Part shown: piece by piece, positions 1 to 9,452 of the stretch
How positions within the stretch are numbered: the stretch's first letter is position 1
Layout of the letters: every line of letters begins with the position of its first letter
From: Candidatus Woesearchaeota archaeon
GTDB taxonomy: Archaea > Nanobdellota > Nanobdellia > Woesearchaeales > GW2011-AR4
Direction of reading: 5' to 3'
Assembly (NCBI GenBank): GCA_018303685.1
Contig: JAGVXS010000039.1
Location: forward strand, 1-14,964
Length of the DNA stretch: 14,964 nucleotides
Notes under the pieces: generated by a model
What the model was told of the DNA's origin: nothing
Database searches by the model: none
Seen by the model: the letters and a program-made list of their open reading frames with translations, nothing else
Program-made: the position numbers and the translations under genes

Positions 1-1370
1 TTTGATGTAAGCAGTTTTTTCAGAAGTACAATCTGCTCAATCATGTCAGTCTTTTCGCTTATCTGTGCCATTGGCTTTACCTTCATCTCATCAAGCCTTT
101 TGATTGCGCAATCCCCATATGCAACAAGCCTTTCTTTGCCTTCAAGCATTTCCCCTGAAAGCACGGAGCCCATTACAAGATTAAGCTGTTCTCCCCTCAA
201 TCCAATAAGCCTTGATGTTGCATTGAACATTGCGTTCAGGCATGCAGGGCAGGCTTTTCCGTCAATAACCTTGATGTCAGGATGCGGGGTTTCTTCTGCA
301 ACCGGCTTTTTTATGGGGTATTTTAATGCATCAAGCTCGTTGCCGACAATTTCAATATCTTTTATCGCATTTTTGCCTAGCTTTATGTAAGGCGGGATTT
401 CAAGCATGGATGCTTTGCAGAAAACAGCATCAAGCATTGCTGGATTTCTGCCTGCATAAACAAGGTTAAGGAAAGCCGGCTCTCCAAGAGTTAATGGACC
501 CTGCCCCTGCATTCCGCTTGTTGCATCAGCTATTGTAATCACATTCAATGCATTAACAAGCTTTGGCAGTGTCTCATCTATATTGTCAAAGTACATCCTT
601 CTCTGGGTAGGCTCGTCGCAAAGCCTTGACAAGTTTTCCACTGCCCCTGACAATCCAATCTGGGAGTTTGTCTTCATTATAGGGGCATTGATGATTTTCC
701 TGTTCAATGTTTCCTTAAGAATCTTAAATTTGTATCCGTCGCTTTCAATCTCCTCAAAGGGGCCTTTTGAAATGTCAGCAAAGCTTATGTCATTCTTTTT
801 GCAAACTTCAAGTATGCCTGCCTTTGAAGCAGCATCCATTGAATCCGAGCCGATTAGCGCCTGCTCCGCTATCATAATGTTTTCTTTGCTAATCCCATGC
901 TCCAGCAGAGCCAAAATCAGCGCATTCAGAAAATCTGGATTTGTGTTTACAGCCTGATATGGATAAGCAGCAGCCACAATGCTCGGCTTGACTAAAATCT
1001 TGTCGTCTTTGCCCAAATCAATCCTGTTCAAAAGCCCAACAGCATCTTTAATCGCTTCATAAATATCATACTTTACTTTTACAACAGCAACAGCATCTTT
1101 GCCCTTTGCTCTTTGCTCGACATAATCATCTCCAATCTTGTAATCCTTCATAGTTTTTTTAGGCATCCTGTTGCCGTGCTCATCCTCAAGAAGCAGGACA
1201 TTATATGGTATGATTGGGTGCATGGGAGAGGGAATTGCAACCTTTGTAATGCCTGCAACCCTTATCTTGGCGCCTTTCTGCTTGATTACAGGTCCTTTGC
1301 AGTAAACACATTTTTCAATAGGGTAAATCCATTTCTTGCTGCATTTTTCACATATCCACCTTATTATCAT
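1..1370 (-). CDS. DUF35-type zinc-ribbon/OB-fold domain fused to a DUF362 domain protein (C-terminus cut by the window edge; missing from the supplied ORF track)
   Basis: Manual minus-strand translation from ATG 1370-1368 gives 456 uninterrupted codons down to position 3. I checked positions 3-420 codon by codon for in-frame stops and found none. N-terminus is MIIRWICEKCSKKWIYPIEKCVYCKGPVIKQKGAKIRVAGITKV...PYNVLLLEDEHG, i.e. a CxxC-x10-CxxC ribbon (1299-1352) plus an OB-like segment, as in thiolase-associated DUF35 proteins. From about aa 115 the DUF362 pattern appears: KILVKPSIV, IMKTNSQIGLSGAVENL, ITIADATSGMQGQGPLTLG, RNPAMLDAVFCKA. An extra C-terminal region contains GKACPAC and YGDC. The ATGA start/stop overlaps the thiolase stop. 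GGTGGGGG SD lies at 1372-1379. Confidence 0.8.
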   Translation of the reverse strand, partial: MIIRWICEKCSKKWIYPIEKCVYCKGPVIKQKGAKIRVAGITKVAIPSPMHPIIPYNVLLLEDEHGNRMPKKTMKDYKIGDDYVEQRAKGKDAVAVVKVKYDIYEAIKDAVGLLNRIDLGKDDKILVKPSIVAAAYPYQAVNTNPDFLNALILALLEHGISKENIMIAEQALIGSDSMDAASKAGILEVCKKNDISFADISKGPFEEIESDGYKFKILKETLNRKIINAPIMKTNSQIGLSGAVENLSRLCDEPTQRRMYFDNIDETLPKLVNALNVITIADATSGMQGQGPLTLGEPAFLNLVYAGRNPAMLDAVFCKASMLEIPPYIKLGKNAIKDIEIVGNELDALKYPIKKPVAEETPHPDIKVIDGKACPACLNAMFNATSRLIGLRGEQLNLVMGSVLSGEMLEGKERLVAYGDCAIKRLDEMKVKPMAQISEKTDMIEQIVLLKKLLTS

Positions 1371-2491
1371 GCCCCCACCTTCTTCAGGATATGCACAGTA
1401 ACTGTGCTTCCTGCCCCGCCTATATTATGTGCCAGCGCATAATTTACATTATCAACCTGCCTGTCGCCAGCCTGTTTTCGCATCTGCTTCGCAAGATCGT
1501 AAACCTGTGCAATTCCTGTTGCGCTTATCGGGTGGCCTTTTGCCTTCAGCCCGCCGCTTGTATTCACAGGCAGCTTTCCATTTAAGTTGACTGTGCCTTT
1601 CCTTATCATGTACTTGCCTTCTCCTTTTTTGCAAAACCCCAAATCCTCATAGGAAATAACCTCAACAGGAGTGAAGGCATCGTGCAATTCAGCAACATCG
1701 ATATCACTAGGAGACAAATTTGCCTGTTTGTAAGCTTCTTCCGCGGCAAGTTTGCTGGCTTGCCATGAAGTCATGTCCTCGTTTTCAAAAGCTGAAAGCC
1801 TGTCAACATATAGGCTTGAGCCTGCTATCTCAATATCTGTTTTTTCTTTTGTCAGAATAGCTGCGGCAGCGCCATTGACAGACAAGCTGCAGTCAAAAAG
1901 CCTTAATGGAGATGCAACAACAGGAGACTTCTTTATCTGCTTTAATGTAACCTGCCTTTTGTAAAACCTTGCCTTTGGATTCAGATAAGCGTTGCTGTGG
2001 TTTTTAAAAGCAACCAATGCAAAATCATCTGTTGTAGCGCCATACCTGAGCATGTACTGTTGCGCAACCAAGGCGTTCTGTGCAGGAAAAATCAGTCCAT
2101 CAGCCTGCTCATACAATCTTTCAGCTGCCATAAGGATTTCGTCTGTTGTATTTGCAGTGTTATTGGACAGCAGCCTTTCAGAGCCAACAACAAGCACATT
2201 CTCATAACCCATTTTATTTGCTGTCCAGATTGCTGAACCTCCTCCGCCGCAGACAGCAGATGATGTTAGTATGGGAACCTTCTTTTTGAACATGCTGCTT
2301 AAAATCGAGGAAAACCCCCTCTGCCTTTCACCACTGCTTTCATTGTCAACAGTTGATGAGACAATAGCATCTATATCTTCCATATTAAAATTAGCGTCTT
2401 CCAACGCCTCCATTGTAGCTTCATAGACAAGCTCCTGGCTTGTATCTGTCTGTGCCCCGAACTTTGTCATGCCAACTCCTTTTACGTACAT
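1367..2491 (-). CDS. Thiolase-superfamily acetyl-CoA C-acyltransferase, SCP-x / DUF35-associated archaeal type
   Basis: 374 aa. N-terminus YVKGVGMTKFG. Nucleophile Cys81 in SSAVCGGGGSA (codon 2249-2251). ELHDAF, KGHPISATG and C-terminal AHNIGGAGS are typical of SCP-x/archaeal thiolases that lack the second catalytic Cys. GAGGGG SD lies 9 nt upstream. Confidence 0.9.
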   Translation of the reverse strand: MYVKGVGMTKFGAQTDTSQELVYEATMEALEDANFNMEDIDAIVSSTVDNESSGERQRGFSSILSSMFKKKVPILTSSAVCGGGGSAIWTANKMGYENVLVVGSERLLSNNTANTTDEILMAAERLYEQADGLIFPAQNALVAQQYMLRYGATTDDFALVAFKNHSNAYLNPKARFYKRQVTLKQIKKSPVVASPLRLFDCSLSVNGAAAAILTKEKTDIEIAGSSLYVDRLSAFENEDMTSWQASKLAAEEAYKQANLSPSDIDVAELHDAFTPVEVISYEDLGFCKKGEGKYMIRKGTVNLNGKLPVNTSGGLKAKGHPISATGIAQVYDLAKQMRKQAGDRQVDNVNYALAHNIGGAGSTVTVHILKKVGA

Positions 2492-2504
2492 AGAATTTAC
2501 CCCT

Positions 2505-2996
2505 CTACCTCGCGAATTTTGACCTGAACTCTGCCCTGTTTACAATTGCCAGCATCAGCAAAGCCTCTGCCACCAAAGTGTCTTTTACAAACGCCTTGCC
2601 CTGAAGAATCGCCCCTCTTTCATCCTGGGCTATCAAATCCAGCTCGAACCTTGCAGTATCCCCAGGCAGTATAGGGGCCATGAATTTTACTTCTTTCATC
2701 TTGTAGGCAAGCACATCCTTCTCCTGATGGTTTGGGATATTGTTTCTCACAAGCAAAGTGCCTGCCTGCCCCATACCTTCAACAGTCAAAGCGCCTGGCA
2801 TTATTGGAAAGCCTACAAAATGGCCTTTAAGGAAATCCTCTTTGCCTGTGACATCCTTTTCAGCTACTATACTGCTACTCGTCAGGCTTATAACCCGGTC
2901 AATGAATAAAAAGTGCTCGTCATAGGGTATAATCTTCTTGATGTTATCTGCGTTTATTCCGCCATCCGCGTTTTTCAGCTCGTTAAACCGGCTCAT
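2505..2996 (-). CDS. fabZ: FabZ-like hotdog-fold 3-hydroxyacyl-thioester dehydratase
   Basis: 163 aa. FabZ core motif LKGHFVGFPIMPGALTVEGMGQAG, with His59 (2820-2822) and Glu73 (2778-2780) 14 residues apart as in bacterial FabZ. N-terminal IPYDEHFLFIDRV corresponds to LPHRYPFLLVDRV. Confidence 0.85.
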   Translation of the reverse strand: MSRFNELKNADGGINADNIKKIIPYDEHFLFIDRVISLTSSSIVAEKDVTGKEDFLKGHFVGFPIMPGALTVEGMGQAGTLLVRNNIPNHQEKDVLAYKMKEVKFMAPILPGDTARFELDLIAQDERGAILQGKAFVKDTLVAEALLMLAIVNRAEFRSKFAR

Positions 2997-3020
2997 TTTA
3001 GCTTGTTTCTAAACTTTGGT

Positions 3021-3034
3021 TTAATTTAAATAAC
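3021..3034 (-). promoter_or_regulatory. TATA-like box for the fabZ-thiolase-DUF35 operon
   Basis: Minus strand reads GTTATTTAAATTAA, centred about 31 nt upstream of the fabZ-like ATG (2996). Confidence 0.45.
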
Positions 3035-3060
3035 TTTCTACCATTATATTTTTTAATATA

Positions 3061-3081
3061 TATAATAAAATAGTTATTATA
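3061..3081. promoter_or_regulatory. Perfect 8-5-8 inverted repeat (candidate operator) between the divergent TATA boxes
   Basis: TATAATAA (3061-3068), AATAG, TTATTATA (3074-3081); the arms are exact reverse complements. The background is very A/T-rich, so a chance occurrence is plausible. Confidence 0.3.
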
Positions 3082-3112
3082 AAGTATATCCATTACTGGA
3101 AAACACAAAAAT

Positions 3113-3124
3113 CTTTATAAAAAG
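3113..3124 (+). promoter_or_regulatory. TATA-like box for accC-birA
   Basis: CTTTATAAAAAG, centred about 26 nt upstream of ATG 3144. This spacing fits a leaderless or very short-leader mRNA. Confidence 0.5.
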
Positions 3125-3143
3125 AGAAGCAAAAGCATGCTGT

Positions 3144-5063
3144 ATGCTTAAGGGAAAAAAATTAGTGAGCAAGTCAGCGAGCTTGAGGCGCAAATTAGTA
3201 TTGGACATCATCAACAGGGCTTTGAAGCCTTTGGAGAGTATGTATATAGCCTTGGCAGGCTCTGCTAAAAAAACCAAAGAGATGTTTCCTGCCTTATACA
3301 GGCACTTTGAAGAGCTGATTAAGCAGCATATAATCACGCCAGGTAAAAGCATTTTTAACTCATCAAAAATAGGCGGCATGGGCGGCTTTATAACAACCAA
3401 TGTCATGAAAAGGCTGCCGCATATCGACGAAGCCCAGATAGAAGAAATACTCGGCAACCCCTCAAATAAGTCATTTCTGGAAATACTTACGAGGGGATTC
3501 GGCATAAACAGAGATAAGGAGAAAACATATACCAAACTTGGCAACGGTAGCTTCAAGAGAATATTAATTGCAAACAGGGGAGAGATAGCACTGCGCATAA
3601 TAAGAGCGTGCCGCGAACTGGGCATAGAAAGCATCGCAATTTATTCTGATGAAGAAAAAGACAGCCTGGTTGTGAAGTTCGCAGACAAGTCCTACAACAT
3701 AGGCAAGCCGAAGAACTACCTCAACATCAAGAAAATAGTTGAGATAGCAAAGCAAAGCGAATGCGATGCAATCCATCCCGGTTACGGGTTCCTTTCAGAA
3801 AACCCCAAGTTTGCAAGGCTATGCGAGAAAAGGGGCATAAAATTCATAGGTCCGTCTTCAAGGATGATAGGGAAGCTTGGAAACAAAATAGAGGCGAAAA
3901 ATGCAATGCTCAAGGCAAACATCCCGGTAATAGAAGGAGTTAAAGAAGATCTAAAGAGCAAGAGGCATGCACTAAGGGCTGCAAGAAGGAGCGGATTTCC
4001 CGTCATACTAAAAGCATCTGCAGGAGGCGGAGGCAAAGGGATGAGGATTGTCGAAAGGGAAGAGGATGTTTTTAATGCCTACGAAAGCGCAGAGAAAGAG
4101 GCGTTAAACTCTTTTGGCAGCAGCTCGCTGTACATAGAAAAATACCTTGAAGAGCCAAAGCACATAGAGTTCCAGATTTTGGCTGACAGGCATGGAAATG
4201 TCATCCATCTTGGGGAGAGGGACTGCAGCATACAGAGAAGGCACCAGAAGCTGATAGAGGAGGCGCCAAGCCCTGCACTTGACAATGAGCTAAGGGAATT
4301 GATGGGCGCTGCTGCCGTGAATGCAATAACGGCTATAGGCTATGAAGGGGCAGGCACTGTGGAATTCTTGCTGGACAAGAACAGGAATTTCTATTTTATA
4401 GAGATGAACACAAGAATACAGGTTGAGCATGGCGTTACAGAAATGGTGACAAATGTAGATTTGATAAAGGAGCAGATAAAACTCGCCGAAGGAGCCAAGC
4501 TTGCTTACAATCAGGAAGACATAAAGGTAGAGGGGCATGCAATTGAATGCAGGATAAATGCAGAGGACCCAAGCAACAATTTTGCGCCTTCTCCGGGCAC
4601 TGTCGTCAACTACCTGCCTCCGGGAGGGCCCGGCATCAGGATAAGCAGCTCGTGCCATACGGGCTGCAGGATTCTGCCGCAATTTGACTCTTTAATCGCC
4701 TTGCTTATCTGCCACGGCAGGACAAGGCACGAGGCAATAGCCAGGATGAGAAGGGCTTTGGACGAGTTTATTATTGAGGGGGTAAAAACTACGACGCCGT
4801 TCCACAAGCTTGTGCTTAGCAAGAGGCAATTCCTGAAGGGAAATGTTGCAACATCTTTTATAGAAAACAATATGATAATGGAGGAGATGAAAGGATTAAA
4901 GCAGAAAAAAGAGGCTTTGCCGAAAGAGAAAAAAGTGCTTATAGTAACAACAGCAGTCGCGCAGTACCTTGTGAAAAAACAGGATGCACCAGGCAAAAAA
5001 ATAAATCCATGGGTGATGGCAGCGAGGCAGGAAGCGCTGAATGAGGGAAGCCTTGAAGAATAG
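3144..5063 (+). CDS. accC: Biotin carboxylase (ATP-grasp) subunit of an acyl-CoA carboxylase, with a ~136-aa N-terminal extension and a ~63-aa C-terminal tail
   Basis: 639 aa. From aa 137: FKRILIANRGEIALRIIRACRELGI, HPGYGFLSEN, glycine-rich lid KASAGGGGKGMRIV, EMNTRIQVEHGVTE, IECRINAEDP. TATA-like box 3113-3124 lies about 26 nt upstream of ATG 3144. The nearest internal in-frame ATG (3405) would still leave about 50 extra residues. Confidence 0.93.
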   Translation: MLKGKKLVSKSASLRRKLVLDIINRALKPLESMYIALAGSAKKTKEMFPALYRHFEELIKQHIITPGKSIFNSSKIGGMGGFITTNVMKRLPHIDEAQIEEILGNPSNKSFLEILTRGFGINRDKEKTYTKLGNGSFKRILIANRGEIALRIIRACRELGIESIAIYSDEEKDSLVVKFADKSYNIGKPKNYLNIKKIVEIAKQSECDAIHPGYGFLSENPKFARLCEKRGIKFIGPSSRMIGKLGNKIEAKNAMLKANIPVIEGVKEDLKSKRHALRAARRSGFPVILKASAGGGGKGMRIVEREEDVFNAYESAEKEALNSFGSSSLYIEKYLEEPKHIEFQILADRHGNVIHLGERDCSIQRRHQKLIEEAPSPALDNELRELMGAAAVNAITAIGYEGAGTVEFLLDKNRNFYFIEMNTRIQVEHGVTEMVTNVDLIKEQIKLAEGAKLAYNQEDIKVEGHAIECRINAEDPSNNFAPSPGTVVNYLPPGGPGIRISSSCHTGCRILPQFDSLIALLICHGRTRHEAIARMRRALDEFIIEGVKTTTPFHKLVLSKRQFLKGNVATSFIENNMIMEEMKGLKQKKEALPKEKKVLIVTTAVAQYLVKKQDAPGKKINPWVMAARQEALNEGSLEE

Positions 5064-5811
5064 TTTTTACAGTTCTTTGGATAATAGCTATATGAAGTGC
5101 AAAATTTACCGCTTCAAATCATTGAAGTCCACTCAAGACAAAGCCAAGGAATTTTCCAAGAAAGGACTAAAAAATATTGTTATTGTCGCTGATGCGCAGA
5201 TAAAAGGGAGAGGGCGCTTCAAAAGAAAATGGCACTCTGCCAAAGGAGGCTTGTGGATGTCAATCTTACTTTCGCCAAAAAAAGCGGAAAATCTGCAATA
5301 CCTGACATTTGCCGCGGCAATAGCAGTTGTCAAGTCCATTAAAAAAATGACAGGCATCAGCACAAAAATAAAATGGCCCAATGACGTCCATTACAACGGC
5401 AGGAAATTGTGCGGCATTCTTACAGAAGGGATTTTTCCAGCTAATTATGCTGTTATAGGGATTGGTGTTAATGTCAACCAAAGCAAATTTCCCAATGAAA
5501 TAAAAAACACCGCTATATCACTCAAAATGATTAAAAACCAAACAATATACATTAAAAAACTGATTAGAAATATACTTTATGAATTTTTCAACTTATATAA
5601 TAATTATTACAATAAAAATAAATTTGAAAAAATATCAAAAATCTGGAAAATGCATTGTGATACAATAAACAGGGACGTAACCGCAATCACAAGAGCTGGC
5701 AGATTAAGCGGGAAGGCAATAGGCATCGATGAAGAAGGCAGCCTGCTGCTGAAAACAGGCAAAAGCAATGTAGTTAAAGTTGCAGAGGGAGACATAAGCA
5801 TCAGGTACTAA
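5041..5811 (+). CDS. birA: Biotin--[acetyl-CoA-carboxylase] ligase, class I (no N-terminal DNA-binding domain)
   Basis: Biotin-binding loop KGRGRFKRKWHSAKGGLWMSILLSP (GRGR codons 5206-5217). KWPNDV motif. C-terminal SH3-like end VAEGDISIRY. Start is uncertain: ATG 5041 overlaps accC by 23 nt and has AGGAAG upstream; ATG 5092 is the alternative (239 aa). Confidence 0.88.
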   Translation: MREALKNSFYSSLDNSYMKCKIYRFKSLKSTQDKAKEFSKKGLKNIVIVADAQIKGRGRFKRKWHSAKGGLWMSILLSPKKAENLQYLTFAAAIAVVKSIKKMTGISTKIKWPNDVHYNGRKLCGILTEGIFPANYAVIGIGVNVNQSKFPNEIKNTAISLKMIKNQTIYIKKLIRNILYEFFNLYNNYYNKNKFEKISKIWKMHCDTINRDVTAITRAGRLSGKAIGIDEEGSLLLKTGKSNVVKVAEGDISIRY

Positions 5812-5850: not shown

Positions 5851-6081
5851 ATGGCGATTTTGAAGAGCATACCAATATTAAAAAAGCTTGTGGACATGGC
5901 ATACGCAATATTGGTAGTGATTGTCTTAAGCGCCTTGGTCGGACTGATTCTGGCGTTTCCTGTCAAACTGCTCTGGAACTATGTGTTCGGGAGCTATCTC
6001 ACAATCAACTGGTTTCAGGCATGGGCCCTGAATGTCCTGACAGGAATACTTTTAAGCAAAACCGGAAACGGAAAAAGGTGA
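5851..6081 (+). CDS. Small hypothetical membrane protein (76 aa, two predicted TM helices)
   Basis: Hydrophobic segments AYAILVVIVLSALVGLILAF and WFQAWALNVLTGILL. TATA-like box 5816-5829 lies about 29 nt upstream of the ATG. Its stop is 4 nt before the bioY ATG, and the bioY SD (GGTGA) lies inside its last codons. Confidence 0.55.
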   Translation: MAILKSIPILKKLVDMAYAILVVIVLSALVGLILAFPVKLLWNYVFGSYLTINWFQAWALNVLTGILLSKTGNGKR

Positions 6082-6085
6082 TGAT

Positions 6086-6739
6086 ATGATAACTGCAAAC
6101 AAAAACAAGACTTTGTACGAGATTCTGTTTCATCAAAGTACAATAATGCTTGATGTTTTTATGATACTTGCAAGCGTTGTTTTTATGGCGGCAATGGCAA
6201 ACATTACAATACCAGCCTCATACATAGCGGCTATGGAGAAGATGTTCCATATACCGCTTTGGCCGGTGCCCATCACAATGCAGACTTTTGGTGTTTTTAT
6301 TGTTACATTCTTCTTCGGCTCAAGAAAAGGATTGATTGCGATGGCTGCATATGCCCTTGCCGGGCTCCTCGGCTTTGGGGTTTTTGCAGGCCACAAGTCG
6401 GGAGTTGATGTATTTTTGAAAGCCAGCGAAGGATTCAAGCTTGCCCCGTCAGGCGGATATATAATAGGATTTTTGCTTATGGCGTTCCTTGTGGGGATTA
6501 TGATAGAGAAAGGCTACGGGAGAACAGGAAAAAGCATATTGCTGTGCATGCTTGTTGGTGAGATTGTGTTATATACAATCGGCCTTCCTTGGCTTTGGAT
6601 AGCGCTCGGAAAGATATCATGGCTTCAGGTCCTCAAATTCGGCTTGGTTCCTTTCATCATAGGAGACACACTGAAGGCACTGCTCGCAGCTGCATTGTTC
6701 CCTTATATGTGGAAAGGGGCAGAGAAGATAGGCAAGTAA
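6086..6739 (+). CDS. bioY: Biotin transporter BioY (ECF-type S component, here without visible A/T components)
   Basis: 217 aa, multi-TM. PVPITMQTFGVFIVTFFFGSRKG, AGLLGFGVFAG and GGYIIGFLLMAFLVG match the BioY family pattern. It sits in the biotin ligase / carboxylase context. Confidence 0.85.
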   Translation: MITANKNKTLYEILFHQSTIMLDVFMILASVVFMAAMANITIPASYIAAMEKMFHIPLWPVPITMQTFGVFIVTFFFGSRKGLIAMAAYALAGLLGFGVFAGHKSGVDVFLKASEGFKLAPSGGYIIGFLLMAFLVGIMIEKGYGRTGKSILLCMLVGEIVLYTIGLPWLWIALGKISWLQVLKFGLVPFIIGDTLKALLAAALFPYMWKGAEKIGK

Positions 6740-6746
6740 GCATTGC

Positions 6747-7136
6747 TCATTCTATTATTGCAAGCACATCGCCCCTGTTCACATTGTCATTTTTCTTTAC
6801 CTTAACATCTTTTAATACACCATCCTTAGGCGCGGTTACCTCATTCTCCATTTTCATAGCCATCAGTATAAACAGGCTCTGCCCCTGCTTTACCCTTGCG
6901 CCTTCTTTGGCTTTTATTTCGTAAATAATCCCGGGAAGAGGCGCTGTTATTTCAGTAGCCCCCTCACTTATCTTCTGCCTTTTTTGCAGCCTGTCAATTG
7001 CGGATGTTTCAGCATCTTTTTTTGTCTCAACTTCGTAAACATCAGAGCCGCAGTGCACAAGTATTTTGCCCTCTTCTGTTTCCTCTACAAAAACCTTGTA
7101 TTCCCTGCCGTCAACCTTAACAACAAGCTCTTCCAT
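6747..7136 (-). CDS. accB: Biotin carboxyl carrier protein (short, 1.3S-like type)
   Basis: 129 aa. Biotinyl domain APLPGIIYEIKAKEGARVKQGQSLFILMAMKMENEVTAPKDGVLKDVKV. Biotinyl-Lys95 codon AAA lies at 6852-6854. N-terminal VKVDGREYKVFVEE resembles short transcarboxylase-type carriers. The ATG is 2 nt after the carboxyltransferase stop. Confidence 0.9.
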   Translation of the reverse strand: MEELVVKVDGREYKVFVEETEEGKILVHCGSDVYEVETKKDAETSAIDRLQKRQKISEGATEITAPLPGIIYEIKAKEGARVKQGQSLFILMAMKMENEVTAPKDGVLKDVKVKKNDNVNRGDVLAIIE

Positions 7137-7138
7137 GT

Positions 7139-8656
7139 TTACAATGGCATGTTTCCGTGTTTTTTTGCCGGCTTTTTTTCTCTTTTAGAAAGCAGCATTT
7201 CAAGGCACTTGACCATGGCAATCCTTGTGTTTTTTGGCTCAATTATCATATCAATTTTTCCGAGGCTTGCTGCACTATAGGGGTTAAGGTATTTTTCCGA
7301 GTACTGCCTTGATAGCTCAGATTTCAGCTTCGGGTTTTTGCTTAGCTCATCCTTGTTTATTATACTGACTGCCTGCTCAGCGCCCATGACTGCAATCTCG
7401 GCCATTGGCCACGCTATAACCTTGTCAAAGCCCATCCCCTTTGAGACAAGTGCGATGTAAGCCCCCCCATACGCTTTTCTAAGCACAAGCGATATTTTTG
7501 GCACAGTCGCCTCGGAATAGGCGTAAAGCACCTTTGCGCCGTGCCTTATTATGCCATTATGCTCCTGCTCTGTGCCGGGCAAATAACCAGTGACATCAAC
7601 AAGATTTATGAGCGGTATGTTGAAGCAGTCGCAAAATCTCACAAATCTTGAAATCTTGTCAGAGGAGTTAATGTCAAGGCAGCCCGCCAGCACCTTCGGC
7701 TGGTTGGCTACAACTCCAACAACATAGCCGTTAAGCCTTGCAAACCCGATAACCGCATTTTGCGCGTAATTCGCCCCAACCTCAAAAAAGGATTTTTTGT
7801 CAAAAATCTCTATGATGACATCTTTTATATCATAAGTCTTTTTTGGGTCTTCCGGAACAATGCCCTGAAGCCTTTTTGTTTCTCTTGCCGGAATGTCTGT
7901 GGAATGATAAGGGGGGCTCTCAAGATTATTCTGGGGGAGATAGCTCAGCAAAATCTTTATCATGTCCAAGCATTGCTTTTCATTTTCTGCCATGAAATGC
8001 GCTACGCCGCTTTTCTCATTTTGGACTGATGCGCCCCCCAGCCCCTCAAAGTCAATTGCCTCGCCAGTGACTGTTTTTATTACATCAGGACCTGTAATGA
8101 ACATGTAGCTTGTTTTATTCACCATAAAAACAAAGTCAGTCAAAGCAGGGCTGTAAACGGCAATACCTGCGCAAGGGCCAAGTATTGCAGATATCTGCGG
8201 TACAATGCCTGAAGACAAAGTGTTAAGCTGAAATATCCTGCCGCCGCCTTCCAGGGCGGAAATTCCTTCCTGTATCCTTGCCCCTCCTGAGTCAAACAAG
8301 CCGATGCACGGGCATCCTGTTTTCAATGCCAGCTCCATCACATGGGCTATTTTTTCGTTGTGAGTATTGCCCATCGAGCCGCCCATAAAGGAGAAGTCCT
8401 GTGCGTAGACATAAACAGGCTTTTTGCTTATTGTGCCATAGCCGGCTACAACACCATCACCATACCTTCTTTTTGCCTCAAGCTCCTTGCTTTGCAGCTC
8501 TGCAAAAGCATCAAGCTCTGCAAAAGAGCCTGTATCAAGAAGGTGCTTAAGGCGCTCTCTTGCAGTAAGCTTGCCTTTTTTGTGCTGCACTTCGGCAGCG
8601 TGCTTGTCATCAAGCGCTTTGCTCCTTTCAAGAAACTCCCTAACCTTCTCCCCCAT
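7139..8656 (-). CDS. pccB: Acyl-CoA carboxylase carboxyltransferase subunit (PccB/AccD5/MmdA family)
   Basis: 505 aa. KGKLTARERLKHLLDTGSFAELDAF, FDSGGARIQEG and a second-half AYGGAYIAL. This is the two-crotonase-fold CT length. TATA-like TTTTTAAA (minus strand; 8679-8686) lies about 26 nt upstream of the ATG. Confidence 0.93.
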   Translation of the reverse strand: MGEKVREFLERSKALDDKHAAEVQHKKGKLTARERLKHLLDTGSFAELDAFAELQSKELEAKRRYGDGVVAGYGTISKKPVYVYAQDFSFMGGSMGNTHNEKIAHVMELALKTGCPCIGLFDSGGARIQEGISALEGGGRIFQLNTLSSGIVPQISAILGPCAGIAVYSPALTDFVFMVNKTSYMFITGPDVIKTVTGEAIDFEGLGGASVQNEKSGVAHFMAENEKQCLDMIKILLSYLPQNNLESPPYHSTDIPARETKRLQGIVPEDPKKTYDIKDVIIEIFDKKSFFEVGANYAQNAVIGFARLNGYVVGVVANQPKVLAGCLDINSSDKISRFVRFCDCFNIPLINLVDVTGYLPGTEQEHNGIIRHGAKVLYAYSEATVPKISLVLRKAYGGAYIALVSKGMGFDKVIAWPMAEIAVMGAEQAVSIINKDELSKNPKLKSELSRQYSEKYLNPYSAASLGKIDMIIEPKNTRIAMVKCLEMLLSKREKKPAKKHGNMPL

Positions 8657-8720: not shown

Positions 8721-9452
8721 CTAAAAAAGCTTGAATCCCCTGCTTTCAGCTGCGGCTATTATGCCGCTGTCAACAATCTTAAACAAAACTTCCTTCTCAC
8801 CGCCAATGCTCCTGTGCTTCCTCAGGATGGCCCTCCTGTTGTTGTTTGGGGTGGTTTGCAGTTCTATGAGGCACTTGCTGCCGTATTTGAGAATGTCGCC
8901 GCCGACAATGTTAACCTTGTCCCTGTCGTCAAAGTCCGTATAAACCTGGTTTGTGATGAGCACCGGAATCTGCTTTTTCCTTGCTATCTCAGTAAGCCAG
9001 GAAATCTGCTTTCCGAGCTCAAGGTTTACTTCATGGATATCATCGTTTTTGCCCAGCTCAAGGCGGTAAAGCATTGCTATGGTGTCAACGACTATCAGCC
9101 CAATCCTGTCATTGACTATGTCCCTGAGCTTCTCAAAAGACTTCTTTTGCTCCGAAAAGCTTGTCGGCCTCAAAAATATTATGTTGTCAAGTATTTTTTT
9201 GTAGTCTTGGCTTATGCTTGAGCATATCTGCCTGAATCTCTCGAGAGAAAAGCCGCCCTCGCTGTCAACATAAACAACTTTTTTCCCGTTTCTGGCCACA
9301 TCAACCGAGCAGAGCAGGCAAAGAATTGTCTTGCCCGAGCCGGCAGGCCCGTAGATTGTAGTTATAACATCTTTTTCATAGCCGCCATCAAGCATTGTGT
9401 CAAGCAGCTTGCTGCCTGTTGATATATTATTGTTCAATTCCACATCTTCCAT
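8721..9452 (-). CDS. radB: DNA repair and recombination protein RadB (RecA/RadA paralog)
   Basis: 243 aa. ISTGSKLLDTMLDGGYEKDVITTIYGPAGSGKT (Walker A), VVYVDSEGGFSLERF, and Walker B LIVVDTI. It is colinear by eye with Pyrococcus-type RadB and has no N-terminal HhH domain. Confidence 0.85.
   Translation of the reverse strand: MEDVELNNNISTGSKLLDTMLDGGYEKDVITTIYGPAGSGKTILCLLCSVDVARNGKKVVYVDSEGGFSLERFRQICSSISQDYKKILDNIIFLRPTSFSEQKKSFEKLRDIVNDRIGLIVVDTIAMLYRLELGKNDDIHEVNLELGKQISWLTEIARKKQIPVLITNQVYTDFDDRDKVNIVGGDILKYGSKCLIELQTTPNNNRRAILRKHRSIGGEKEVLFKIVDSGIIAAAESRGFKLF

Follow-up and report, generated by a model that had tools for sequence, protein, structure and literature searches.

Positions 1 to 14,964 of contig JAGVXS010000039.1 (assembly GCA_018303685.1), from a Candidatus Woesearchaeota archaeon, form the window studied here, that is, the whole stretch of 14,964 nucleotides that was analysed. 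It carries an accC gene whose product, a biotin carboxylase (BC), begins with 136 residues placed in front of the catalytic core. The enzyme itself is a known one; its N-terminal domain is undescribed and restricted to one lineage, and our literature search found no paper on such an N-terminal extension of AccC. Judging from the comparison of homologous sequences, the extension is a genuine, translated part of AccC and is under purifying selection. Our best overall explanation, that it is a translated lineage-specific domain of AccC which would serve as a protein-protein module, has in our estimate a probability of about 0.5. The gene, its promoter and the parts of its product are as follows, in window coordinates.

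3144-5063, plus strand: accC open reading frame (ORF), encoding a 639-aa biotin carboxylase.
3106-3121, plus strand: accC promoter, a conserved block made of a purine-rich stretch resembling a transcription factor B recognition element (BRE) at ~3106-3113 and of the TATA box TTTATAAA at 3114-3121.
3144-3146, plus strand: start codon of full-length AccC, encoding the conserved Met M1.
3144-3329, plus strand: first half of the N-terminal extension (aa 1-62), opening with a basic tail, MLKxKKAKL..., ahead of the predicted helices H14-47 and H49-62 (net charge +9 and pI 10.3 are listed with this part of the extension).
3330-3551, plus strand: second half of the N-terminal extension (aa 63-136), its most conserved block.
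3552-4898, plus strand: biotin carboxylase core (aa 137-585), with N domain, ATP-grasp domain and C domain (Pfam PF00289, PF02786, PF02785).
4899-5063, plus strand: C-terminal tail (aa 586-639) and stop codon, with the conserved motif VLIVTTAVxQYL...NPWVMAARQEAMNEGSLEE.

Three Pfam domains follow each other in the core, Biotin_carb_N (PF00289, aa 137-242), CPSase_L_D2 (PF02786, aa 248-454) and Biotin_carb_C (PF02785, aa 468-574), with E-values from 1e-37 to 1e-79. The first of them starts exactly at aa 137 (nt 3552), where a previous sequence-only reading of this DNA had placed the beginning of the core. In the NCBIfam scan, AccC scores above the cut-offs of TIGR00514 (accC; 642.2 bits for a cut-off of 626.5) and NF006367 (661.5 bits for a cut-off of 597). 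The core is ~50% identical to solved biotin carboxylases, and the PDB alignments begin at query aa 115-140, nearly all of them at 133-140, so that none covers the extension. Genes for the partner subunits lie nearby, encoding a Biotin_lipoyl protein (6747-7136) and a Carboxyl_trans protein (7139-8656) recognized by Pfam; these biotin carboxyl carrier protein (BCCP) and carboxyltransferase (CT) neighbours are also present at the related loci L001 and L022.

Canonical AccC proteins, such as those of S. aureus (2VPQ) and E. coli (1BNC), display the same three-domain core, with the invariant GGGGKG loop and ~50% identity. Whereas they start 1-3 residues before strand beta-1, the AccC of the window adds 136 residues in front and ~54 behind. 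Its residues R154 and E158 are conserved and align by eye with R19 and E23, which we take to be the corresponding dimer-interface residues of E. coli AccC. The best NCBIfam model, with 687 bits, is NF006406 (PRK08654 type), which describes archaeal AccC/PycA proteins of ~500 aa with a short C-terminal tail. It covers aa 137-613, reaching part-way into the C-terminal tail (roughly its first half), but holds no counterpart of aa 1-136 or 614-639, and the window AccC remains below its cut-off of 739.

The extension is well conserved among relatives, a point that the sequence-only reading had left to be checked in orthologs. A full-length search listed ~100 clusters of 620-660 aa. The extension aligns from end to end in 93 of these, and more than 90 full-length homologues share 60-82% identity across the entire protein. 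With aa 1-136 alone, the search gave five fragments sharing 60-71% identity and the same first Met. A 97%-identical copy is carried by a groundwater Woesearchaeota metagenome-assembled genome (MAG; JACOZN010000015, locus L004). In the genome scan the extension was found in 18 species-representative GTDB genomes, all of them Woesearchaeota/Nanoarchaeia or MAGs so labelled, and the homologues named at NCBI come from Candidatus Woesearchaeota, plus one from Pacearchaeota.

A profile (hidden Markov model) search of 1.84 billion representative proteins with the extension brought 25 hits. The sequences of 12 were read, the other 13 being mostly short. Ten of these 12 run straight into the core motif ([FI][KS][RK][IV]L[IV]...), and among the BC-fused hits are some whose extensions are no more than 23-34% identical; neither free-standing nor otherwise-fused copies were seen among the hits read. 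Two hits, P0138 and P0141, were rejected as eukaryote-like repeat artefacts. By these comparisons, the extension is a lineage-specific orphan family, found only in archaea of the Woesearchaeota/Pacearchaeota type (Nanoarchaeia, DPANN) and seen only as a fusion that immediately precedes the biotin carboxylase core.

Conservation is not evenly distributed along the extension. The second half contains the motifs HIITPSK, SSKI, GSFITANVMKRLPHVDE, NPSNKSFLEILTKGFGIN and KEKTYTVLG, and the lowest column entropy, 0.9-1.1 bits, is found over aa 79-136. The last of these motifs ends in TYTVLG, which directly precedes strand beta-1 of the core, no low-complexity linker being interposed. The family is also basic, with a median pI of 9.9 and a median net charge of +11.

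Five independent lines argue that the extension is translated from M1: conservation, selection, composition, promoter spacing and the lack of a conserved alternative start. As the sequence-only reading stated, the frame is open from the ATG at 3144, which is the first ATG after the in-frame TAA at 3066-3068 that sets its upstream limit. M1 is found together with the motif MLKxKKAKL in 81 of the 93 homologues. The internal candidates are less constant: M79 is Met in 54/93 and M88 in 52/93, both being replaced by I or V in ~40%, and 14 of the 93 have no Met at all within aa 60-136. Between 3405 (M88) and 3552 there is no in-frame ATG, GTG or TTG, only CTG, ATA and ATC codons. The earlier claim that no start codon lies between 3405 and the core therefore holds, while the number of unavoidable extra residues deduced from it has to be lowered from 50 to at least 49.

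Substitutions point in the same direction. Among 21 orthologous genes, the ratio of nonsynonymous to synonymous differences per site (pN/pS) is 0.33 for the extension overall and 0.14 for the core; by part, aa 1-87 have a ratio of 0.38, aa 88-136 one of 0.24 and the C-terminal tail one of 0.26. Synonymous sites are close to saturated (pS ~0.75). In the closest pair, the window and L004, the extension has a pS of 0.20 and a pN of 0.012. Its composition is close to that of the core (GC 0.42 and third-position GC, GC3, 0.52, compared with 0.46 and 0.53), the adjacent intergenic region having a GC of 0.20. On the opposite strand, a 185-aa ORF (3077-3634, minus strand) spans the whole extension. 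We consider it spurious as a gene because the codon-position pattern of selection is that of the plus-strand frame, which shows coding-type substitutions.

The promoter is placed for the same start. The 3' end of the TATA box TTTATAAA lies 22 nt before ATG 3144, and the box falls within the TATA-like stretch 3113-3124 that the sequence-only reading had already assigned to a start at about 3144. The block C.aAAAtcTTTATA.AA recurs in the window and in 18 of the 20 loci that have sufficient upstream sequence, its 3' end lying ~22 nt upstream of the conserved ATG. At L022 the TATA box is 23 nt before the accC ATG, no BRE/TATA box of this type was seen at L003, and L023 has a possible similar box, identified by eye, upstream of a conserved internal Met. 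Archaeal TATA boxes are centred near -26/-27 relative to the transcription start; with this spacing, transcription would start at ~3144 and the accC mRNA is probably leaderless. The other lead genes of the window, those for CT, RadB and the small ORF orf76, have the same geometry, with a TATA box ending ~22-23 nt before the ATG, whereas the internal operon genes for thiolase and BioY display GGAGG- or GGTGA-type Shine-Dalgarno sequences instead. The starts so compared are 3144, 5851, 8656 (minus strand) and 9452 (minus strand) for lead genes, and 2491 (minus strand) and 6086 for internal ones. This spacing implies leaderless transcripts for the lead genes of the window.

An untranslated upstream part, nt 3144-3404 forming a long 5' leader and the true start being M79 or M88, would agree with the NCBI-named proteins of close relatives, which begin at MGSFIT (M79) or MKRLPH (M88). 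We judge it extremely improbable. Both Met residues are replaced in the proportion given above and are missing from the Met-free homologues, aa 1-87 are under purifying selection with a coding-type GC3, and the TATA box is spaced as a leaderless start at M1 would require. Moreover, no Shine-Dalgarno-like sequence precedes 3378 (M79) or 3405 (M88), and an Rfam scan of 2900-3650 for a structured 5' leader found no RNA element.

The shorter records are most likely start-site mis-calls, and the error looks systematic. NCBI-named proteins of relatives start at M79, M88 or later, with lengths of 519-622 aa, and records starting at an internal Met lose 50-120 residues of the conserved N-terminal domain. 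They are P0007, P0008, P0089, P0092, P0095-P0100, P0103, P0106, P0108, P0109, P0112, P0114, P0115 and P0117; P0007 has no source name and the remaining ones are NCBI-named. Expressing or modelling AccC from the NCBI-named Woesearchaeota/Pacearchaeota records therefore means working with a truncated protein.

The sequence-only reading had called the extension unexplained, and this is supported: Pfam, NCBIfam and PDB sequence searches with the extension of the window gave no match. A Pfam scan of 28 diverse family members at E<=1 yielded no consistent family, and the extension profile found among PDB sequences only a spurious coiled-coil match (E=0.67). AlphaFold2 predicts helices H14-47, H49-62, H79-90, H96-104 and H111-118, the last three being short and falling in the second half, and no strands in aa 1-127, with low confidence. 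The mean predicted local distance difference test (pLDDT) score is 48 for the extension alone (6-sequence alignment). In the full-length model (74 sequences), aa 11-50 reach 63-72, and aa 59-132, with the three short helices, stay below 50. Foldseek against the PDB found nothing below E=1 with the extension model, the best matches (E=1.0) being unrelated small helical proteins, and with the full-length model it aligned the BC core only, over ~450 columns. The models thus predict an all-helical extension. A helix-hairpin-helix, (HhH)2, arrangement in aa 79-125 (LPHVDExxxEEIL, LTKGFGIN) was noticed by eye only and was dropped, as the 28 members gave no HHH match in Pfam at E<=1.

The sequence-only reading had proposed a winged helix-turn-helix (wHTH) of ArsR/TrmB type in the extension. 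Such a module would bind DNA, for example at the divergent promoter shared by accC and a FabZ-like gene, so that AccC would regulate its own operon or biotin genes. The basic character of the family would fit DNA binding; three helices bounded by the conserved P29 and P49 and then by HIITPSKELF could be read as H1-H2-H3 plus a hairpin; and a conserved AT-rich block in the middle of the divergent intergenic region, the sole candidate for a binding site, might be an operator. The searches speak otherwise. Among the 28 members, TrmB (E=0.19) and Put_DNA-bind_N (E=0.026) are each matched once, without any HTH family recurring, and neither NCBIfam nor PDB sequences give a wHTH match. The structure prediction that had been suggested as a check shows helices only, at low confidence, with no beta-hairpin wing, and Foldseek is negative. 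In addition, the proposed H2 would be ~17 residues long, and what is conserved in the presumed recognition helix H3 (F48, P49, Y52, E56, H62) is mostly aromatic or hydrophobic, while DNA-reading helices typically carry a polar and basic set. The most conserved part, aa 63-136, is outside the proposed domain, and in the profile search the extension was never seen as a free-standing regulator. A winged-helix DNA-binding module is not supported by these results, and we regard the regulatory role built on it as very doubtful.

A second argument for this proposal concerned the adjacent biotin ligase gene, birA. Its product is indeed a ligase without HTH, as had been stated, but this is weak support for a wHTH on AccC because archaea normally have class I biotin protein ligases that lack an HTH. 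The nearest known parallel would be the N-terminal winged helix of class II BirA, together with the ArsR/TrmB regulators: class II BirA likewise bears a small basic N-terminal module on an enzyme of the biotin pathway. That module sits on the ligase, however, and the extension on the carboxylase; there is no profile match between them, no predicted wing and a different pattern of conservation.

We favour, tentatively, a protein-protein role in which the extension would pack against the carboxylase core and either dock BC onto the CT/BCCP core or set the oligomeric state of BC. Four observations suggest it: the extension is always fused to the core and adjoins it directly, a conserved C-terminal tail comes with it, the carboxylase of the window is of the three-subunit type and lacks the BT domain that joins BC and CT in single-chain alpha subunits, and the BCCP partner is acidic (pI 5.2), facing a basic extension. 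Several points weigh against this view. The low confidence of the AlphaFold2 models leaves neither the fold of the extension nor its docking onto the core established. Proteins of this genome are generally rich in lysine (BirA has a pI of 10.1), which makes basicity weak evidence. Furthermore, the strongly conserved polar motifs NPSNKSF and KRLPHVDE would equally fit a site binding a ligand or a nucleic acid.

Non-catalytic segments that hold BC and CT together or stimulate the complex are known: the BT domain of the alpha subunits of propionyl-CoA carboxylase (PCC) and 3-methylcrotonyl-CoA carboxylase (MCC), the actinobacterial epsilon subunits AccE/PccE and Haloferax PccX. With these the extension shares a functional analogy, through the role proposed for it, and no detected sequence relationship: no homology to a BT domain or to a free-standing small subunit was found, the profile hits read being all BC-fused N-termini or artefacts. 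The BT domain, moreover, is C-terminal to BC and has a beta-barrel folded around a helix, while the extension stands N-terminal to BC, with only helices predicted. By analogy, the extension may work like the BT and epsilon segments, of which it is not a member.

The polar motifs bring in a different possibility, a regulatory sensor exerting allosteric control in response to a small molecule (acyl-CoA, a nucleotide or a biotin-related ligand) or to a protein such as BirA. HIITPSK, KRLPHVDE, NPSNKSF and GFGIN are near-invariant and resemble a binding site more than a scaffold, and accC and birA, which overlap by 23 nt and are always adjacent, would suit this role. We think it unlikely: the extension matches no known ligand-binding family in Pfam or NCBIfam, and biotin ligase genes have been reported next to archaeal pycA as well, and next to accC/pycA in archaea without an extension of the AccC type, so that the adjacency need not involve the extension (PMC11237513). 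Quite unlikely as well is that the extension constitutes a new nucleic-acid- or effector-binding fold by which AccC itself would sense a signal. If true, AccC might autoregulate the divergent promoter of accC and the fatty-acid-type genes or gate carboxylase activity, and would replace regulators that reduced DPANN genomes lack.

Another use of the basic tail would be to tether AccC, with the help of amphipathic helices, to a membrane or lipid surface near lipid synthesis or the BioY protein. Lysine abounds in the first 13 residues, the hydrophobic moment is moderately high over aa 7-36 and 43-60, and the cluster encodes BioY, the small conserved membrane protein of orf76 and fatty-acid-type enzymes. 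This would account only for the first ~60 residues and not for the most conserved aa 63-136, and the extension has no hydrophobic segment; we hold such a tether to be very improbable.

The C-terminal tail, which enters the argument for the protein-protein role, occurs alongside the N-terminal extension in all full-length homologues that were inspected and has no Pfam match at E<=10. An OadG-like identity, considered for this tail, was dropped on that account. In the Foldseek comparison, human PCC and MCC alpha subunits align over ~490-500 columns, ~40-50 more than stand-alone biotin carboxylases; these alignments may extend into the C-terminal tail of AccC, where model confidence is low.

The genes and the intergenic region around accC are listed below.

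1367-2491, minus strand: thiolase-like gene (Pfam scan).
2505-2996, minus strand: FabZ-like dehydratase gene, divergent from accC (Pfam scan).
2997-3143, no strand assigned: divergent FabZ-like/accC intergenic region, with both promoters and the AT-rich middle block (GC 0.20).
5041-5811, plus strand: birA, class I biotin protein ligase without HTH (Pfam BPL_LplA_LipB and BPL_C).
5851-6081, plus strand: orf76, small membrane ORF (hydrophobic helices by eye).
6086-6739, plus strand: BioY (Pfam scan).
6747-7136, minus strand: BCCP (Biotin_lipoyl).
7139-8656, minus strand: carboxyltransferase, CT (Carboxyl_trans).
8721-9452, minus strand: RadB (Pfam scan).

This cluster, from the FabZ-like gene through AccC-BirA-orf76, BioY, BCCP and CT to RadB, is kept largely or fully at L001 and at the divergent L022, and only in parts at L023 and L003. 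The adjacency of accC and birA is kept in every relative examined (L001, L003, L022, L023); their overlap (5041-5063), in different frames, suggests translational coupling. The divergent intergenic region measures ~150 nt in most orthologous loci (L004-L022) and comprises three conserved blocks: the promoter of the FabZ-like gene, aTTTAAAtAACTTTC, the AT-rich middle block, approximately taCtttaaTAtttTxtAAtAtatATaTt, and the accC BRE/TATA box. For the second of these, a regulator site or a mere AT-rich spacer can be envisaged.

The orf76 product is a protein of ~76 aa with two hydrophobic helices recognized by eye, and its gene has its own TATA box ~23 nt before the ATG. Copies were found in the window (5851-6081) and at L022 (3871-4101), directly after birA, and at L001 (9121-9363) and L002 (3248-3475), one gene further downstream. 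It has no Pfam or NCBIfam match and could be a partner, so far unrecognised, of the biotin uptake system or the carboxylase cluster. On the other side of accC, a divergent gene set is conserved (window 1367-2996, minus strand; L001 1-5848; L023 1-7935). It encodes a FabA/FabZ-like dehydratase and thiolase-like proteins, to which relatives add a DUF362 protein and a short-chain dehydrogenase, and looks like a carboxylase-linked fatty-acid-type pathway of these DPANN archaea, independent of acyl carrier protein (ACP).

Conserved enzymes often carry terminal extensions specific to one lineage, and for this reason the AccC extension is no major surprise; nothing in our results points to a new mechanism. 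Its practical value is for annotation, and it makes a reasonable target for structure prediction or biochemistry. What we describe is an undescribed family with near-invariant motifs, carried by a central metabolic enzyme in a poorly understood group of archaea with reduced genomes. In these hosts the gene cluster that includes the acyl-CoA carboxylase is conserved and also holds biotin uptake genes and genes for fatty-acid-type enzymes. To our knowledge, no structure shows how archaeal three-subunit carboxylases are held together. If the extension mediates assembly or regulation, it would represent another solution to holding BC, BCCP and CT together.

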